Source: a virus
Lineage: Duplodnaviria; Heunggongvirae; Uroviricota; Caudoviricetes
Strand: one strand, 5' to 3'
Length of the DNA: 6,008 nt
IMG/VR virus record: IMGVR_UViG_2693429677_000001
Part shown: in pieces, positions 1 to 6,008 of the stretch
Layout: each line of letters starts with the position of its first letter
Numbering within the stretch: the first letter of the stretch is position 1
Notes under the pieces: model-generated
Seen by the model: only the letters and a program-made list of their open reading frames with translations
Told to the model about the DNA's origin: nothing
Databases searched by the model: none
Made by a program: the position numbers and the translations under genes

Positions 1-1044
1 GAAACGTACAAACCGCAGTTACAGGAAGGCAGTGGTCGTACCCAGACTATCCGCATGATTCTGGTTGTCACGAATACCGAAGCCATCACGCTGAAAATCG
101 ACCCGTCGGTGGTACTGGCGACCCGTAAATACGTGGATGATGAAGTCCTGGAATTAAGGCTGTATGTGGATGACCAGATGAGAAACCACATTGCCGCACA
201 GGATCCTCATACCCAGTATGCACAGAAACATAATCCGACATTTACCGGAGAACCAAAAGCGCCGACGCCTGATGCAGGAAATAACACCACGCGGATTGCG
301 ACCACTGCGTTTGTACAGGCTGCTATTACCGCTCTGATTAACGGCGCGCCAGCCACGCTGGACACACTGAAAGAAATTGCCGCGGCCATTAACAATGATC
401 CGAAATTCAGCACCACCATTAACAATGCGCTGTCAGGTAAGCAGCCACTGGATGAGACGCTGACTCATTTGAGTGGAAAGGATGTTGCCGGTCTTCTCGC
501 ATACCTTGGTTTGGGAGAAGGCTCTGCATTACCGGTTGGGGTGCCTGTTCCGTGGCCTTCAGCCACTCCGCCAACAGGCTGGCTGAAATGCAACGGTGCC
601 GCTTTTTCTGCTGAAGAATACCCGGAACTGGCAAAGGCTTACCCGACCAATAAATTGCCTGATTTACGCGGTGAATTTATTCGTGGCTGGGATGATGGAC
701 GTGGAGTGGATGCGGGACGTGCCTTGCTAAGTCTTCAGGATGACTCTTTTGAAGCGCACAGGCATGAGTCCTTTTTTTACGCGGGTATTTATCGCAATGA
801 AACACCATTAAAAAATCTTCCAAGTTCAGACGAGATGCTGACTTTAAGTTCCACAACTAATGCCTTGTCCCCGGACAGTATTGATGCCACTAATTCGTTA
901 ATTGGTAATGATGATTACAACTGTCTGATTGAAGGAAATAAAAATAACAAACGAACGGCGACGGGGTTGAGTACCAGTATTGTCGGTGCAGCAGAGACAC
1001 GCCCACGTAATATTTCATTTAATTACATTGTGAGGGCTGCATGA
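1..1044 (+). CDS. Phage tail fiber protein, 5'-partial (gene starts upstream of window); copy 1 of the variable C-terminal region
   Basis: Frame is open from base 1 (ETYKPQLQEGSGRTQTIRMILVV...) to TGA at 1042-1044. C-terminus ...ETRPRNISFNYIVRAA resembles the conserved C-terminal motif of Mu S / P1 S / lambdoid Stf-type fibers. 4-bp ATGA overlap with the downstream tfa suggests translational coupling. The ORF track's ATG at 55 is an internal Met. Confidence 0.85.
   Translation, partial: ETYKPQLQEGSGRTQTIRMILVVTNTEAITLKIDPSVVLATRKYVDDEVLELRLYVDDQMRNHIAAQDPHTQYAQKHNPTFTGEPKAPTPDAGNNTTRIATTAFVQAAITALINGAPATLDTLKEIAAAINNDPKFSTTINNALSGKQPLDETLTHLSGKDVAGLLAYLGLGEGSALPVGVPVPWPSATPPTGWLKCNGAAFSAEEYPELAKAYPTNKLPDLRGEFIRGWDDGRGVDAGRALLSLQDDSFEAHRHESFFYAGIYRNETPLKNLPSSDEMLTLSSTTNALSPDSIDATNSLIGNDDYNCLIEGNKNNKRTATGLSTSIVGAAETRPRNISFNYIVRAA
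494..519. other. Putative 26-bp invertase crossover site (gix/pix/hix-like), copy inside repeat A
   Basis: TTCTCGCATACC-TT-GGTTTGGGAGAA: two 12-bp half-sites around a 2-bp core. The right half-site matches the TTnTCnnAAACC-type half-site of Gin/Hin systems (compare gix TTCCTGTAAACCGAGGTTTTGGATAA). Lies at the constant/variable boundary of the fiber gene (LGLGE). Confidence 0.5.
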
Positions 1045-1511
1045 TGTATAACGCCATCTTAAATAGTAAATTTATTGCCACAAAGGCAGGAGAGATTACC
1101 GTTTATAACTATGACAGTGAGACACGGGAGTATATTTCTGCATCAACTGAATATCTTGCTGTGGGTGTCGGTATCCCTGCATATTCCTGTTTAGATGCTC
1201 CTGGCACACATAAGGCTGGTTATGCAATCTGCCGTTCGGCAGATTTAAACTCATGGGAATATGTGCCAGACCATCGCGGTGAAGTTGTCTATAACACCGA
1301 AACGGGAGAATCAAAAGAAATCACAGCTCCGGGTGATTACCCTGAAAATACAACCACTACCGTCCCGTTAACGCCATACGATAAATGGGATGGTGAGAAA
1401 TGGGTGACGGATACCGAGGCACAGCATAGCGCCGCAGTAGAAGCGGCAGAAAGGCCGTTGGTGATGCGAATGGTGTCTTGCCGACACCAGACCCGGCACA
1501 GACAAAACTGA
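1041..1511 (+). CDS. tfa: Tail fiber assembly protein (Tfa / P2 gpG / Mu U-like), copy 1, 3'-disrupted: conserved C-terminal domain replaced by 19 out-of-frame residues at the duplication junction (likely pseudogene)
   Basis: Residues 1-137 (MMYNAILNSKF...AAVEAAE) are identical to the intact copy at 2719..3324. After base 1451 the frame runs into fiber-gene sequence and ends RPLVMRMVSCRHQTRHRQN*. The conserved tfa C-terminus (...LDYIDAVTATDTSTAPDVIWPELPEA) is missing. Confidence 0.6.
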   Translation: MMYNAILNSKFIATKAGEITVYNYDSETREYISASTEYLAVGVGIPAYSCLDAPGTHKAGYAICRSADLNSWEYVPDHRGEVVYNTETGESKEITAPGDYPENTTTTVPLTPYDKWDGEKWVTDTEAQHSAAVEAAERPLVMRMVSCRHQTRHRQN

Positions 1512-2722
1512 TTAACCAGAAACGCATCGCGCCGCTGAATCTTCTGAGTGTTGACCCGAACAACCAGAGCCAGATTATTGCGGAGCAAATCATCCCTGAG
1601 AACGAGGGCGGATTCTGGATCCGTGAGATTGGGCTTTATGATGATGAAGGCGTACTCATTGCGGTGGCGAACTGCCCGGAAACGTACAAACCGCAGTTAC
1701 AGGAAGGCAGTGGTCGTACCCAGACTATCCGCATGATTCTGGTTGTCACGAATACCGAAGCCATCACGCTGAAAATCGACCCGTCGGTGGTACTGGCGAC
1801 CCGTAAATACGTGGATGATGAAGTCCTGGAATTAAGGCTGTATGTGGATGACCAGATGAGAAACCACATTGCCGCACAGGATCCTCATACCCAGTATGCA
1901 CAGAAACATAATCCGACATTTACCGGAGAACCAAAAGCGCCGACGCCTGATGCAGGAAATAACACCACGCGGATTGCGACCACTGCGTTTGTACAGGCTG
2001 CTATTACCGCTCTGATTAACGGCGCGCCAGCCACGCTGGACACACTGAAAGAAATTGCCGCGGCCATTAACAATGATCCGAAATTCAGCACCACCATTAA
2101 CAATGCGCTGTCAGGTAAGCAGCCACTGGATGAGACGCTGACTCATTTGAGTGGAAAGGATGTTGCCGGTCTTCTCGCATACCTTGGTTTGGGAGAAGGC
2201 TCTGCATTACCGGTTGGGGTGCCTGTTCCGTGGCCTTCAGCCACTCCGCCAACAGGCTGGCTGAAATGCAACGGTGCCGCTTTTTCTGCTGAAGAATACC
2301 CGGAACTGGCAAAGGCTTACCCGACCAATAAATTGCCTGATTTACGCGGTGAATTTATTCGTGGCTGGGATGATGGACGTGGAGTGGATGCGGGACGTGC
2401 CTTGCTAAGTCTTCAGGATGACTCTTTTGAAGCGCACAGGCATGAGTCCTTTTTTTACGCGGGTATTTATCGCAATGAAACACCATTAAAAAATCTTCCA
2501 AGTTCAGACGAGATGCTGACTTTAAGTTCCACAACTAATGCCTTGTCCCCGGACAGTATTGATGCCACTAATTCGTTAATTGGTAATGATGATTACAACT
2601 GTCTGATTGAAGGAAATAAAAATAACAAACGAACGGCGACGGGGTTGAGTACCAGTATTGTCGGTGCAGCAGAGACACGCCCACGTAATATTTCATTTAA
2701 TTACATTGTGAGGGCTGCATGA
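1478..2722 (+). CDS. Phage tail fiber protein, second copy, 5'-truncated (constant region + variable C-terminal cassette Sv); no credible start codon
   Basis: In-frame coding from about 1452 (KAVGDANGVLPTPDPAQTKL...GGFWIREIGLYDDEGVLIAVAN...), which resembles the N-proximal region of P2 gpH-type fibers. The last 329 aa are identical to 55..1044. The 'M' at 1478 is a TTG with no Shine-Dalgarno; an in-frame TAG lies at 1427-1429. Stop at 2720-2722 overlaps the tfa start (ATGA). Confidence 0.65.
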   Translation: MPTPDPAQTKLINQKRIAPLNLLSVDPNNQSQIIAEQIIPENEGGFWIREIGLYDDEGVLIAVANCPETYKPQLQEGSGRTQTIRMILVVTNTEAITLKIDPSVVLATRKYVDDEVLELRLYVDDQMRNHIAAQDPHTQYAQKHNPTFTGEPKAPTPDAGNNTTRIATTAFVQAAITALINGAPATLDTLKEIAAAINNDPKFSTTINNALSGKQPLDETLTHLSGKDVAGLLAYLGLGEGSALPVGVPVPWPSATPPTGWLKCNGAAFSAEEYPELAKAYPTNKLPDLRGEFIRGWDDGRGVDAGRALLSLQDDSFEAHRHESFFYAGIYRNETPLKNLPSSDEMLTLSSTTNALSPDSIDATNSLIGNDDYNCLIEGNKNNKRTATGLSTSIVGAAETRPRNISFNYIVRAA

Positions 2723-3129
2723 TGTATAACGCCATCTTAAATAGTAAATTTATTGCCACAAAGGCAGGAGAGATTACCGTTTATAACTATGACAGTGAGA
2801 CACGGGAGTATATTTCTGCATCAACTGAATATCTTGCTGTGGGTGTCGGTATCCCTGCATATTCCTGTTTAGATGCTCCTGGCACACATAAGGCTGGTTA
2901 TGCAATCTGCCGTTCGGCAGATTTAAACTCATGGGAATATGTGCCAGACCATCGCGGTGAAGTTGTCTATAACACCGAAACGGGAGAATCAAAAGAAATC
3001 ACAGCTCCGGGTGATTACCCTGAAAATACAACCACTACCGTCCCGTTAACGCCATACGATAAATGGGATGGTGAGAAATGGGTGACGGATACCGAGGCAC
3101 AGCATAGCGCCGCAGTAGAAGCGGCAGAA
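1679..3129. repeat. Direct repeat copy B (perfect 1451 bp)
   Basis: Same as copy A, shifted by 1678 bp. The 227 bp between the copies (1452..1678) encodes fiber constant-region sequence. Confidence 0.9.
2172..2197. other. Putative left crossover site of the invertible segment (pixL-like)
   Basis: Identical to 494..519. Bases 2184..2198 (TTGGTTTGGGAGAAG) are a perfect 15-bp inverted repeat with 4066..4080. Confidence 0.6.
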
Positions 3130-3324
3130 GCACAGCGCCAGTCGCTGATTGATGCTGCAATGGCTTCCATCAGTCTGATTCAACTGAAATTACAGGCCGG
3201 GCGGAAGCTGACGCAGGCAGAAACCACCCGACTTAACGCTGTGCTGGATTACATTGACGCAGTGACGGCAACAGATACCAGCACTGCGCCGGATGTCATC
3301 TGGCCTGAACTGCCGGAGGCGTAG
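2719..3324 (+). CDS. tfa: Tail fiber assembly protein (Tfa / gpG / U-like), intact copy
   Basis: 201-aa ORF, translationally coupled to the upstream fiber gene. C-terminal ...LNAVLDYIDAVTATDTSTAPDVIWPELPEA parallels the C-terminus of the minus-strand tfa' (...LWLDYLDALELIDTSSAPDIEWPTPP), as expected for the two chaperones of an invertible fiber segment. Confidence 0.85.
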   Translation: MMYNAILNSKFIATKAGEITVYNYDSETREYISASTEYLAVGVGIPAYSCLDAPGTHKAGYAICRSADLNSWEYVPDHRGEVVYNTETGESKEITAPGDYPENTTTTVPLTPYDKWDGEKWVTDTEAQHSAAVEAAEAQRQSLIDAAMASISLIQLKLQAGRKLTQAETTRLNAVLDYIDAVTATDTSTAPDVIWPELPEA

Positions 3325-3715
3325 GCCATTCAATATCTGGAGCACTGGAGGTATCAATCAGTTCCAGTGCGTCCAGATAATCCAGCCACAAATTATATTG
3401 CGCCAGTTCCTCACTTTTCAGACGACCAATAGCCGCTTTACCTGGCCATTGTCTGCTGTTCATGTGCTCGTTGGCTTCATTAATAAGTTTTCTTTTTTTC
3501 AAATCCGCCAATGCAATAAGGTTTTCTTTTGATAAAGGTGGTTGCTCTGTCAAAACCGGATATCCCTCCTGATTGCTGACTATTTTCATGCCATTATCCT
3601 GACCATCCAGTAGTAACAGCCATTCATCCGTGGTTATCTCAACAGCATCTGAAGGTGCTTTATTTAAATCGGTAAAAAAACCATTTTCTTTTTGTGAATA
3701 GAAGTATCTGTCCAT
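3296..3715 (-). CDS. tfa: Alternative tail fiber assembly protein (tfa' / U'-like) for the inverted orientation
   Basis: 139-aa minus-strand ORF immediately downstream (on minus) of the alternative fiber cassette: TAA TAA ATG junction at 3713-3721. Conserved tfa C-terminal motif DYLDALELIDTSSAPDIEWP. Its 3' end overlaps the + strand tfa 3' end by about 29 bp. Confidence 0.8.
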   Translation of the reverse strand: MDRYFYSQKENGFFTDLNKAPSDAVEITTDEWLLLLDGQDNGMKIVSNQEGYPVLTEQPPLSKENLIALADLKKRKLINEANEHMNSRQWPGKAAIGRLKSEELAQYNLWLDYLDALELIDTSSAPDIEWPTPPAVQAR

Positions 3716-3718
3716 TTA

Positions 3719-4120
3719 TTAATCTCCAAAAGCAATCCAGTAAGCAAAAGGATTTACTCCTTGCTCAGTCACAGATGACATCAGGGAAAATTGCGATGGT
3801 GAAACAGGTAACGCTGCAAAACTAACCATTGTTGACACACCTGACCGTGCATTATCGTACGATGCAACAACACAATAATTGGTATTGCTGAAAGATATCG
3901 GCAGGGTGATATTTACAGGTGAGCCTAATGGCCCTGATGCTGATATTCCCATTTGAATGATGGTTCCATCAGGCAATTTTCTCCAGCGATTAGAACTCGG
4001 ATTTCTTTTCCAGGCTGACATATCCGGTATCTGATTTTCTCCTGTGCCCACATCCCTTTTCGCCGCTTCTCCCAAACCAACGTTTATGAAAATGCAGAGA
4101 TAACGGCTAACTGGCATCAT
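3719..4120 (-). CDS. Alternative tail fiber C-terminal cassette (Sv'-like); promoterless, expected to fuse in-frame to the constant fiber region after inversion
   Basis: Minus-strand ORF beginning inside the segment next to the right crossover site. Reading from the site gives ...NVGLGEAAKRDVGTGENQ..., sharing the GLGE junction with the + strand fiber (...AYLGLGEGSALPV...) exactly at the 15-bp inverted repeat. The true coding start after inversion would be the crossover point (about 4066), not the ATG at 4120. Confidence 0.7.
   Translation of the reverse strand: MMPVSRYLCIFINVGLGEAAKRDVGTGENQIPDMSAWKRNPSSNRWRKLPDGTIIQMGISASGPLGSPVNITLPISFSNTNYCVVASYDNARSGVSTMVSFAALPVSPSQFSLMSSVTEQGVNPFAYWIAFGD
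4067..4092. other. Putative right crossover site (pixR-like), inverted relative to 2172..2197
   Basis: TTCTCCCAAACC-AA-CGTTTATGAAAA; its reverse complement TTTTCATAAACG-TT-GGTTTGGGAGAA shares the core and right half-site with the left site. Located 55 bp upstream of the invertase start, at the 5' end of the minus-strand fiber cassette. Confidence 0.6.
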
Positions 4121-4147
4121 CTCCGGTTTTTATTCAGGGGGATGATC

Positions 4148-4741
4148 ATGCTTATTGGCTATGTACGCGTGTCAACAAATGACCAGAACACGGAATTGCA
4201 GAGTAATGCGCTGGAGTGTGCAGGATGTGAGCTGATTTTTGAGGATAAAATCAGCGGCTCGAAGTCCGACAGGCCGGGGCTGAAAAAACTGCTCAGGACA
4301 CTATCGGCAGGAGACACGTTGGTTGTCTGGAAGCTGGACAGACTGGGGCGCAGTATGCGGCATCTCGTTACGCTGATAGAAGAGTTGCGCCAGCGTGGTG
4401 TGAATTTCAGAAGCCTGACTGACAGTATTGATACCAGTACCCCAATGGGCCGTTTCTTTTTTCATGTCATGGGTGCCCTGGCTGAAATGGAGCGAGAACT
4501 CATTGTCGAGCGGACACGCGCAGGACTGGAAGCGGCCAGAGCCAAAGGTCGTATTGGTGGCAGACGACCGAAACTCACCGCGAGTGAGTGGGAGCAGGTC
4601 GGACGGTTGCTGGCTGCGGGGGAATCTCGTCAACGTGTGGCGCTGATTTTTGATATTGGCCTGTCCACGCTCTATAAAAAATTCCCCTCATCAGCGACAA
4701 AGAATAAATTGTGTCATCCCTTAGCCAACCGGGACAAATAG
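4148..4741 (+). CDS. pin: Serine DNA invertase of the Gin/Pin/Hin/Cin family
   Basis: MLIGYVRVSTNDQNT...DTLVVWKLDRLGRSMRHL...RSLTDSIDTSTPMGRFFFHVMGALAEMERELIVERT...GRIGGRRPKL...STLYKKF is near-identical in motif content to Gin (Mu) and Pin (e14), with the catalytic Ser in YVRVSTNDQ and a C-terminal HTH. ATG at 4148 has a GGGGG Shine-Dalgarno 6 nt upstream; the ORF track's ATG at 4142 abuts the SD and is unlikely. The symbol is a family-level guess; the exact orthologue was not determined. Confidence 0.9.
   Translation: MLIGYVRVSTNDQNTELQSNALECAGCELIFEDKISGSKSDRPGLKKLLRTLSAGDTLVVWKLDRLGRSMRHLVTLIEELRQRGVNFRSLTDSIDTSTPMGRFFFHVMGALAEMERELIVERTRAGLEAARAKGRIGGRRPKLTASEWEQVGRLLAAGESRQRVALIFDIGLSTLYKKFPSSATKNKLCHPLANRDK
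4165..4250. promoter_or_regulatory. Possible Fis-dependent recombinational enhancer (sis-like) within the 5' coding region of the invertase gene
   Basis: In Hin and Gin systems the enhancer lies in the first ~100-150 bp of the invertase coding sequence. The segment here (gtgtcaacaaatgaccagaacacggaattgcagagtaatgcgctg...) resembles the Hin enhancer region as I remember it. Individual Fis sites cannot be placed by eye. Confidence 0.3.
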
Positions 4742-4800
4742 CCTGACATCTCCGGCACAATTGAAAATACCACTCACCCATTAACCACGGAGTTAAACGG
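4742..4800 (+). promoter_or_regulatory. Intergenic region expected to carry the late promoter / RBS for the FI-FII tail operon
   Basis: 59-bp gap between invertase stop and FI start with an SD near 4788-4792. In P2 the PF late promoter (Ogr-activated, TGT-N12-ACA dyad near -55) sits upstream of FI. I could not find a clean dyad here; an imperfect TGTC-N17-GACA lies at 4722-4746. Confidence 0.2.
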
Positions 4801-5991
4801 ATGAGTGACTATCATCACGGCGTGCAGGTGCTGGAGATTAACGACGGCACCCGCGTCATTTCCACCGTATCCACTGCCATTGTCGGCATGGTCTGCACGG
4901 CCAGCGATGCGGATGCGGAAATCTTCCCCCTCAATAAACCGGTGCTGATCACCAATGTGCAGAGCGCGATTGCAAAGGCCGGTAAAAAAGGCACGCTGGC
5001 GGCATCGTTGCAGGCCATCGCTGACCAGTCAAAACCGGTCACCGTTGTCGTGCGCGTGGAAGACGGCACCGGCGACGACGAAGAAACGAAACTCGCGCAG
5101 ACCGTTTCCAATATCATCGGCACCACTGACGAAAACGGTCAGTACACCGGACTGAAAGCCCTGCTGGCGGCGGAGTCGGTTACCGGTGTTAAACCGCGTA
5201 TTCTTGGTGTGCCGGGGCTGGATACCAAAGAGGTGGCTGTTGCACTGGCATCAGTCTGTCAGAAGCTGCGCGCTTTCGGATATATCAGCGCATGGGGCTG
5301 TAAAACCATTTCCGAGGTGAAAGCTTACCGCCAGAATTTCAGCCAGCGTGAGCTGATGGTCATCTGGCCGGATTTCCTCGCATGGGATACGGTCACCAGT
5401 ACCACCGCCACCGCGTATGCCACCGCCCGTGCGCTGGGTCTGCGTGCCAAAATCGACCAGGAGCAGGGCTGGCATAAAACGCTGTCCAACGTCGGGGTGA
5501 ACGGTGTTACCGGCATCAGCGCCTCTGTATTCTGGGATTTGCAGGAGTCCGGCACCGATGCTGACCTGCTTAACGAGTCAGGCGTCACAACACTGATTCG
5601 CCGTGACGGTTTCCGCTTCTGGGGTAACCGTACCTGCTCTGATGACCCGCTGTTCCTCTTTGAAAACTACACCCGCACCGCGCAGGTGCTGGCCGACACG
5701 ATGGCTGAGGCGCACATGTGGGCGGTGGACAAGCCCATCACCGCAACGCTGATTCGCGACATCGTTGACGGTATCAATGCCAAATTCCGTGAGCTGAAAA
5801 CAAACGGCTATATCGTGGATGCGACCTGCTGGTTCAGCGAAGAATCCAACGATGCGGAAACCCTCAAGGCCGGAAAACTGTATATCGACTACGACTATAC
5901 ACCGGTGCCTCCTCTCGAAAACCTGACCCTGCGCCAGCGTATTACCGATAAATACCTGGCAAATCTGGTCACCTCGGTTAACAGCAATTAA
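4801..5991 (+). CDS. FI: Phage contractile tail sheath protein (P2 gpFI family)
   Basis: 396-aa ORF starting MSDYHHGVQVLEINDGTRVISTVSTAIVGMVCTASDADAE..., which I recognise as the N-terminus and length of P2 FI-type sheath proteins. GGAG-type SD about 8 nt upstream. GC-rich codon usage, distinct from the fiber cassettes. Confidence 0.92.
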   Translation: MSDYHHGVQVLEINDGTRVISTVSTAIVGMVCTASDADAEIFPLNKPVLITNVQSAIAKAGKKGTLAASLQAIADQSKPVTVVVRVEDGTGDDEETKLAQTVSNIIGTTDENGQYTGLKALLAAESVTGVKPRILGVPGLDTKEVAVALASVCQKLRAFGYISAWGCKTISEVKAYRQNFSQRELMVIWPDFLAWDTVTSTTATAYATARALGLRAKIDQEQGWHKTLSNVGVNGVTGISASVFWDLQESGTDADLLNESGVTTLIRRDGFRFWGNRTCSDDPLFLFENYTRTAQVLADTMAEAHMWAVDKPITATLIRDIVDGINAKFRELKTNGYIVDATCWFSEESNDAETLKAGKLYIDYDYTPVPPLENLTLRQRITDKYLANLVTSVNSN

Positions 5992-6003
5992 GGAGCCTGA
6001 CCG

Positions 6004-6008
6004 ATGGC
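6004..6008 (+). CDS. FII: Start of next late gene, probably tail tube protein (P2 gpFII-like); 3'-partial, only ATG GC in window
   Basis: AAGGAG Shine-Dalgarno at 5990-5995 followed by ATG at 6004 (M-A...), in the position FII occupies after FI in P2-like phages. Confidence 0.4.

Follow-up and report, generated by a model that had tools for sequence, protein, structure and literature searches.

The apparent tandem duplication in this stretch of DNA is best explained as a scaffolding artefact of a short-read draft assembly, situated in an ordinary P2-type invertible tail-fibre locus, and this reading is given a probability of about 0.68. The window, that is the whole stretch of 6,008 nucleotides that was analysed, corresponds to one entire contig of 6008 bp, CYBT01000060.1, which belongs to E. 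coli draft assembly GCA_001277775.1. A literature search by accession found no paper on this assembly. The reading is based on an N at the join, on the containment of one piece of the contig within the other, on base 1 being a contig end, and on the presence of the identical prophage in other assemblies with only one copy of the repeated sequence.

The first-pass annotation had described a perfect direct repeat of 1451 bp, and this was borne out. Bases 1-1451 are identical to bases 1679-3129 with 0 mismatches, and the identity at an offset of 1678 ends at position 1452. A perfect match of 1451 nt cannot have arisen by chance. The annotation had also described the DNA between the two copies as fibre sequence that lies just upstream of the repeated part. 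This is correct for 1453-1678, which corresponds to nt 96-321 of fibre gene H and in the single-copy parent immediately precedes the repeated part, the latter starting at H nt 322, but it does not apply to base 1452. When the window is compared with CYBT01000060.1 the sole mismatch is at this position, which is A in the window and N in the record, and the deposited contig reads ...gcggcagaa n ggccgttgg... around the join. Since the deposited base is an N, the join of tfa to the fibre gene is a scaffold gap of one N and not read-through sequence. The repeat identity does stop where the annotation had placed its junction, at 1451/1452, however, the site is a one-N gap between two scaffolded pieces. 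The left copy of the repeat starts at window base 1, which is the first base of the contig, so this copy is truncated because the record itself ends there, and not because of where the window was drawn.

The two pieces of the contig, A and B, are given in Table 1 together with the other features of the locus. Piece A is fully contained in piece B. A scaffolding artefact is expected to leave one piece that is a redundant, 100% identical copy of sequence in its neighbour, and to link the pieces by N instead of sequence; both are seen in CYBT01000060.1. Some scaffolders mark a join by convention with a single N. On both sides the join interrupts a domain: in tfa it is Caudo_TAP, as the piece A copy stops at aa 137 of the 201 aa, and in H, at about codon 32, it is the Phage_tail_fib N-terminal domain. 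The microhomology at the join is at most 2 nt, 'AA'.

Table 1. Features of the window, with positions numbered from its first base.
Feature	Position	Strand	Description
Scaffold piece A	1-1451	+	H nt 322 to stop (1-1044), then tfa nt 1-411 (1041-1451); exact copy of 1679-3129
Single-N scaffold gap	1452	.	'A' in the window, N in the deposited contig
Scaffold piece B	1453-6008		Begins with fibre gene H nt 96
Fibre gene H, start of piece B	1453-2722	+	nt 96 to stop; start codon and first 32 codons absent; Pfam Phage_tail_fib N-terminal and Collar
Left 26-bp crossover site in H (TTCTCGCATACC TT GGTTTGGGAGAA)	2172-2197	+	Copy in piece A at 494-519
tfa, complete tail-fibre assembly gene	2719-3324	+	Caudo_TAP, aa 79-200
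tfa', alternative tail-fibre assembly gene	3296-3715	-	Caudo_TAP; convergent with tfa, 29-nt overlap
Alternative fibre C-terminus	3719-4120	-	Gp53-like_C; joins the constant part of H upon inversion of the segment
Right crossover site	4067-4092	-	Inverted relative to 2172-2197
Serine DNA invertase	4142-4741	+	Resolvase and HTH_7 domains
Tail sheath gene FI	4801-5991	+	

Apart from the join, the sequence represents a P2-type invertible tail-fibre switch of the ordinary kind, carried by an E. coli P2-like prophage. Invertible tail-fibre switches are found in P2-like phages, Mu (G segment and Gin), P1 (C segment and Cin) and e14 (P segment and Pin). As in these systems, a constant 5' part of the fibre gene can be combined with either of two 3' tips, and a separate tfa accompanies each tip. 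The alternative tips and tfa genes are flanked by 26-bp crossover sites in inverted orientation, and an invertase with Resolvase and HTH_7 domains is adjacent. Both orientations have been captured in public assemblies, as two loci (L010 and L013) carry the segment 2199-4065 flipped, with inversion breakpoints at 2184-2198. The parent H protein has 454 aa, and of the tube gene FII only the first 4 nt are present before the contig ends. Nothing is unusual about the locus when it is compared with the known switches; the extra copy, if real, would add a third, directly oriented site at 494-519.

The presence of an invertase and of functional-looking sites raises the question of whether the join could have been made by the serine invertase of the locus itself at a secondary (quasi) crossover site. 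It was also found that the 16 nt at 1439-1454 are 88% complementary to 4055-4070, beside the right site. However, when the sequence up to 40 nt from either junction partner was compared with the 26-bp site, the highest score was 12/26, which is within the background of the window, while the three true sites score 26/26, and on this basis an origin from a quasi-site of the Gin/Cin/Hin/Pin type was rejected. In addition, the join is direct and not inverted, and its centre base is an N in the record. The judgement of the first-pass annotation that an invertase product is unlikely thus holds, and the chance of such an origin is very slight.

The junction was searched for in several sequence collections. 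A BLAST search with a 200-nt junction probe gave no contiguous match over the join in 5,426 complete E. coli genomes, 50,697 phage records and 72,556 plasmids. The exact 30-nt junction, with A, with any base or with 0-3 bases at the N, was absent from the GTDB representative genomes and from IMG/VR, and in the JGI metagenomes, which were scanned with a single base of any identity at the N, the exact junction was also absent. Exact look-ups of the junction-specific products (156, 414, 347, 422 and 357 aa) returned the source contig only, or nothing. The single-copy form of the identical prophage is present in at least four other assemblies. Four loci (L011, L014, L016 and L018) carry the same prophage, with 100% identity over 1-1451 and 99.9% identity from 1446 onward, and each has one H and one tfa; L011, which is DBKPQQ010000001.1 positions 340597-361016, serves as an example of the single-copy parent. 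At least 80% of the window is covered by 159 complete genomes and, among the matches listed, each spans about 4.4-4.6 kb, which corresponds to one copy. An element that is single-copy when assembled elsewhere is also what a scaffolding artefact predicts.

The first-pass annotation had left the choice between a recent duplication and an assembly error. Three observations favour an assembly error: the join is an N, the end of the left copy coincides with that of the contig, and other assemblies have the identical prophage in single-copy form. The zero divergence between the copies, which had been used as an argument, carries no weight because both copies may derive from the same reads.

The main alternative is that the prophage of the isolate does contain a very recent duplication, in which a unit of about 1677-1678 bp running from H nt 96 to tfa nt 411 was repeated head to tail. 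The duplication would have formed by illegitimate or microhomology-mediated recombination, with the unassembled junction bridged by read pairs and recorded as a single N. The direct order of tfa followed by the 5' part of H over a gap of nearly zero is what a scaffolder would be expected to derive from the everted read pairs of a tandem duplication, and the presence of the cassette twice in the record suggests extra coverage. The copies are identical, as a recent event predicts. The 'AA' common to tfa (GCAGAA) and H (GCAAAT, then GGCC) beside the N fits a microhomology of 2 nt if the N is a T. Head-to-tail order, identical copies and a possible microhomology of at most 2 nt are likewise features of microhomology-mediated bacterial tandem duplications; the differences are that the join here is an N and that one copy is incomplete in the record. 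A real duplication should give gap-free junction sequence, as a junction at full depth should assemble, yet the deposited contig has 'n' at window position 1452. A duplication also predicts that the left copy starts at H nt 96, whereas in the record the contig end cuts it at H nt 322. The junction was absent from every other genome and contig in the six collections searched, so that it has no counterpart in an independent assembly or genome, and the identical prophages are single-copy. Both breakpoints are located in zones where assemblies break for unrelated reasons. Furthermore, a duplication would leave a truncated tfa and an H copy that has no start, with no evident benefit. Taken together a real duplication is unlikely, although it is the strongest of the alternatives.

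The favoured scaffolding artefact can be described as follows. The contig consists of two assembled pieces linked by the single N, and piece A redundantly repeats an internal part of piece B, namely the variable receptor-binding cassette formed by the fibre C-terminus and the tfa N-terminus. The ends of piece A and the start of piece B lie in two conserved modules, of which one encodes the N-terminal domain of H and the other the C-terminal domain of tfa. Many E. coli genomes carry these modules in several of their prophages, and the tfa module is a common breaking point of de Bruijn assemblies. The redundant piece would then have been put in front of piece B by a scaffolder or a gap-filler; we infer both the placement and the type of program responsible. 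SSPACE and GapFiller are greedy and false joins are possible (PMC5320598, PMC3446322). Scaffold joins are recorded as N gaps, GapFiller fills them from both edges and closes them only upon overlap, and gaps that are not closed retain Ns (PMC5320598, PMC3446322). The contig resembles false duplications of the SSPACE/GapFiller type in its single N, the identical sequence on either side of the gap, the repeat-rich locus and its origin in a draft submitted to ENA. It differs from them in that the duplicated 1451 nt exceeds a typical paired-end insert.

Each of the three piece ends is within a conserved module of which an E. coli genome can have more than one copy. Window 3040-3190 has matches in 2,280 of the 5,426 genomes, at up to 7 places per genome, and 1453-1950 has matches in 926 genomes, at up to 3 places per genome. 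Contigs from other samples also start at many different codons in the tfa zone. Three k=31 Logan contigs start at 3100 (3129 minus 29), and it was considered whether the right end of piece A is a specific k=31 graph node. This was dropped after controls: 5 contigs from other samples start at 3100, and the control coordinates 3085, 3106 and 3115 gave 4, 1 and 11 contigs, so the zone is special and the coordinate 3100 is not.

A number of points speak against the artefact. The coincidence at 3100 is lost under controls, as described. The piece ends at 1679, 1453 and 3129 coincide with none of the common H/tfa mosaic boundaries found at the BLAST level among E. coli prophages, which are at about 1797-1825, 3026-3048 and 3139. 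For this strain, the piece ends could not be tied to any exact boundary. No concrete algorithmic path could be reconstructed by which a contained piece, in direct orientation, ends up upstream of the context it belongs to. A scaffolder that uses paired reads would require pairs leading out of tfa (up to nt 411) and into H (from nt 96), and pairs of this kind are the mark of a true tandem duplication. An assembler that printed the same 1451 nt twice may have had perhaps about twofold coverage.

It is also conceivable that the cassette occurs twice in the genome in a non-tandem arrangement, with a second prophage or a P1-like plasmid carrying an identical fibre-tip/tfa-N cassette whose contig was misattached in front of the locus. 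As regards the join, this is a sub-case of the artefact explanation. Fibre-tip/tfa modules are common, nearly base for base, to unrelated elements, and a P1-like contig (L021) shares window 3098-4087. Many E. coli genomes have several copies of such modules, and contigs from other samples hold such cassettes flanked by conserved modules. On the other hand, a de Bruijn assembler would collapse two identical copies of 1451 nt and not print both, and the record has no differing flanks for piece A. When a second prophage was modelled from the L023, M172-1 and K-12 alleles, the SNP positions failed to reproduce the piece ends. A second, non-tandem copy is considered improbable.

The display of the N as an A made a scaffold gap resemble a precise recombination junction, and windows from draft assemblies should retain their Ns and mark contig ends. 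The biological weight of the finding is small, as the locus is a P2-type invertible tail-fibre switch of the standard kind, and nothing but a scaffold join supports the 'duplication'. If real, the duplication would be a transient, RecA-unstable rearrangement of modest interest. The further proposal that a recent 1.7-kb duplication in a P2-like prophage has made a second direct crossover site, which would turn a two-site switch into a three-site one (two direct and one inverted), is more doubtful still than the duplication itself. If it is true, the invertase would be able to invert a larger, nested segment, or it could resolve the duplication as RecA can, and the contig would show a possible first stage in the origin of multi-site inversion systems of the p15B Min type.

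An exact look-up of the product of tfa' led to contig CYBT01000060.1 (6008 bp) of GCA_001277775.1, and alignment showed the window to be the whole of it; the gene products of this contig are labelled Escherichia coli. The sole difference between the two is at position 1452, where the window has an A and the record has an N (...gcggcagaa n ggccgttgg...). Because the record has an N at this position, the "junction" between tfa, the tail-fibre assembly gene, and the constant region of H, the tail-fibre gene, is not sequence: two scaffolded pieces (piece A, 1-1451, and piece B, 1453-6008) meet there across a gap of one N. With A written in place of N, the scaffold gap takes on the appearance of an exact junction. 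Self-comparison and a repeat search of the window confirmed the perfect repeat described in the first-pass annotation; every base of 1-1451 is identical to 1679-3129, and identity at the offset of 1678 stops at 1452. Of the two origins that had been offered for it, an assembly error is favoured over a very recent duplication. A scaffolding artefact is given a probability of about two in three, a figure that also covers the case in which a true second copy lies elsewhere in the genome and was wrongly scaffolded into this contig.

Features of contig CYBT01000060.1, with the genes that follow the first copy listed in order
Feature	Position	Description
First copy: fibre C-terminus, then truncated tfa	1-1451	ORF map
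Fibre gene, 5'-truncated		ORF map
tfa, full		ORF map
tfa', alternative tfa		ORF map; convergent
Alternative fibre tip		ORF map; minus strand
Serine invertase		ORF map
Sheath gene FI		ORF map
26-bp crossover site	494-519	Direct
26-bp crossover site	2172-2197	Direct, same orientation as 494-519
26-bp crossover site	4067-4092	Inverted

In EC14, a related complete genome that is 98% identical, the gene order is I, H (454 aa), tfa, tfa' (reverse), alternative tip (reverse), invertase, FI and the tube gene FII. The same P2-like prophage is found in other assemblies, and in four of these (L011, L014, L016 and L018) it is 100% identical to 1-1451 and 99.9% identical from 1446 onward, with one H and one tfa in each. 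Mapped on L011, piece A spans H nt 322 to tfa nt 411, piece B begins at H nt 96 (codon 32), and the contig ends 4 nt inside FII. The 3' ends of tfa and tfa' are convergent and overlap by 29 nt at 3296-3324; several Logan contigs of other samples terminate at 3321, within this overlap.

The junction is missing from all collections searched. A 200-nt junction probe had no contiguous match in 5,426 complete E. coli genomes, 50,697 phage records and 72,556 plasmids; the two halves turn up separately in thousands of records. The exact junction pattern is absent from the GTDB representative genomes and IMG/VR (with the N taken as A, any base, or 0-3 bases) and from the JGI metagenomes (a single scan with exactly one base of any kind at the N). 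Product look-ups found the truncated proteins created by the duplicated structure on CYBT01000060.1 alone. Microhomology at the join is at most 'AA' (tfa ...GCAGAA/GCAC vs H ...GCAAAT/GGCC). The join lies within the Caudo_TAP domain of Tfa (aa 137 of 201, domain aa 79-200) and within the N-terminal Phage_tail_fib domain of H, and since both partners are cut inside domains it ignores module boundaries.

This absence counts for the artefact, as do the N at the join, the containment of piece A as an identical copy in piece B, the single-copy state of the identical prophage elsewhere and the location of the breakpoints in repeat-prone modules. The left copy opens at record base 1, with nothing upstream in CYBT01000060.1, and is thus cut by the contig end at H nt 322, a position that a duplication model does not predict. 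False duplications at scaffold gaps are a known class, and the repeat is consistent with it. According to published pipelines, the greedy programs SSPACE and GapFiller may join sequences falsely, and their joins are N gaps that are filled from both edges and closed only upon overlap (PMC5320598; PMC3446322). Some points count against the artefact. No exact algorithmic route to such a join could be reconstructed. A paired-read scaffolder that joins tfa to the 5' part of H in direct order would need everted pairs, which a true tandem duplication would supply, and a cassette printed twice is a hint of higher coverage. A true tandem duplication whose junction went unsequenced is nevertheless unlikely; the H nt 322 cut, the N, the missing junction and the single-copy relatives all speak against it. 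The remaining alternatives are jointly very improbable. In a real duplication, the first copy of H would presumably be complete, with its 5' end outside the record, and the Tfa after it would be cut at aa 137 and end in an out-of-frame tail of 19 residues. The start codon and the first 32 codons would be missing from the second copy of H, the full downstream tfa could perhaps still act in trans, and there would be a third crossover site, directly oriented. Such an arrangement would be mildly interesting and unstable.

All three piece ends fall within conserved modules. The H N-terminal domain (1453-1950) has matches in 926 of 5,426 complete genomes, at no more than 3 places per genome, and the tfa C-terminal domain (3040-3190) has matches in 2,280 of them, at no more than 7 places in any one; a truncated remnant in K-12 is among the matches. 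Contigs in assemblies of other samples often start in this conserved C-terminal part of tfa (3040-3324), with 1 to 11 contigs at each of four codons tested. Between the two modules sits the variable receptor-binding cassette, and small contigs holding only such cassettes are common in other samples. That the piece ends are assembly-graph branch points is no more than plausible: the mosaic boundaries that BLAST resolves in E. coli prophages lie elsewhere (~1797-1825, 3026-3048 and 3139), and none of the alleles compared reproduces the piece ends. Three k=31 Logan contigs open at window-equivalent 3100 (3129 minus 29), which had suggested a specific graph node at the right end of piece A. This lead was dropped, since control coordinates 3085, 3106 and 3115 also yield contig starts (4, 1 and 11 contigs); the tfa zone is a general break hot spot and 3100 carries no weight.

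When all 26-mers of the window were scored against the three crossover sites, the true sites scored 26/26, and in the vicinity of the junction partners (up to 40 nt from either) the highest score was 12/26, inside the window background distribution. The join is therefore rejected as a serine-invertase product, in agreement with the first-pass annotation. The end of piece A (1439-1454, 16 nt) is 88% complementary to 4055-4070 beside the right crossover site; this is probably chance, given that it does not resemble the crossover site itself.

Nothing new is established by the locus or the repeat. P2-like, Mu, P1 and e14 elements have invertible tail-fibre switches, and the locus is a routine switch of the same class. 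It shows the defining features that were examined: the crossover sites are inverted, the invertase has the Resolvase+HTH_7 architecture, each alternative tip comes with a tfa of its own, and the segment is seen in both orientations. The first ~1000 nt of L021, a metagenome contig of a P1-like element with DarA and LydB genes downstream, match 3098-4087 in long blocks of exact identity. What the two share is the C-terminus of tfa, the whole of tfa', the alternative tip of the fibre and the crossover site, and one host-range module thus occurs in two unrelated phage backbones. In two further public assemblies with the P2-like prophage, L010 (9633-11532) and L013 (6888-8787), segment 2199-4065 is inverted with breakpoints inside the 26-bp crossover sites, and the tail-fibre switch is therefore active in natural populations.
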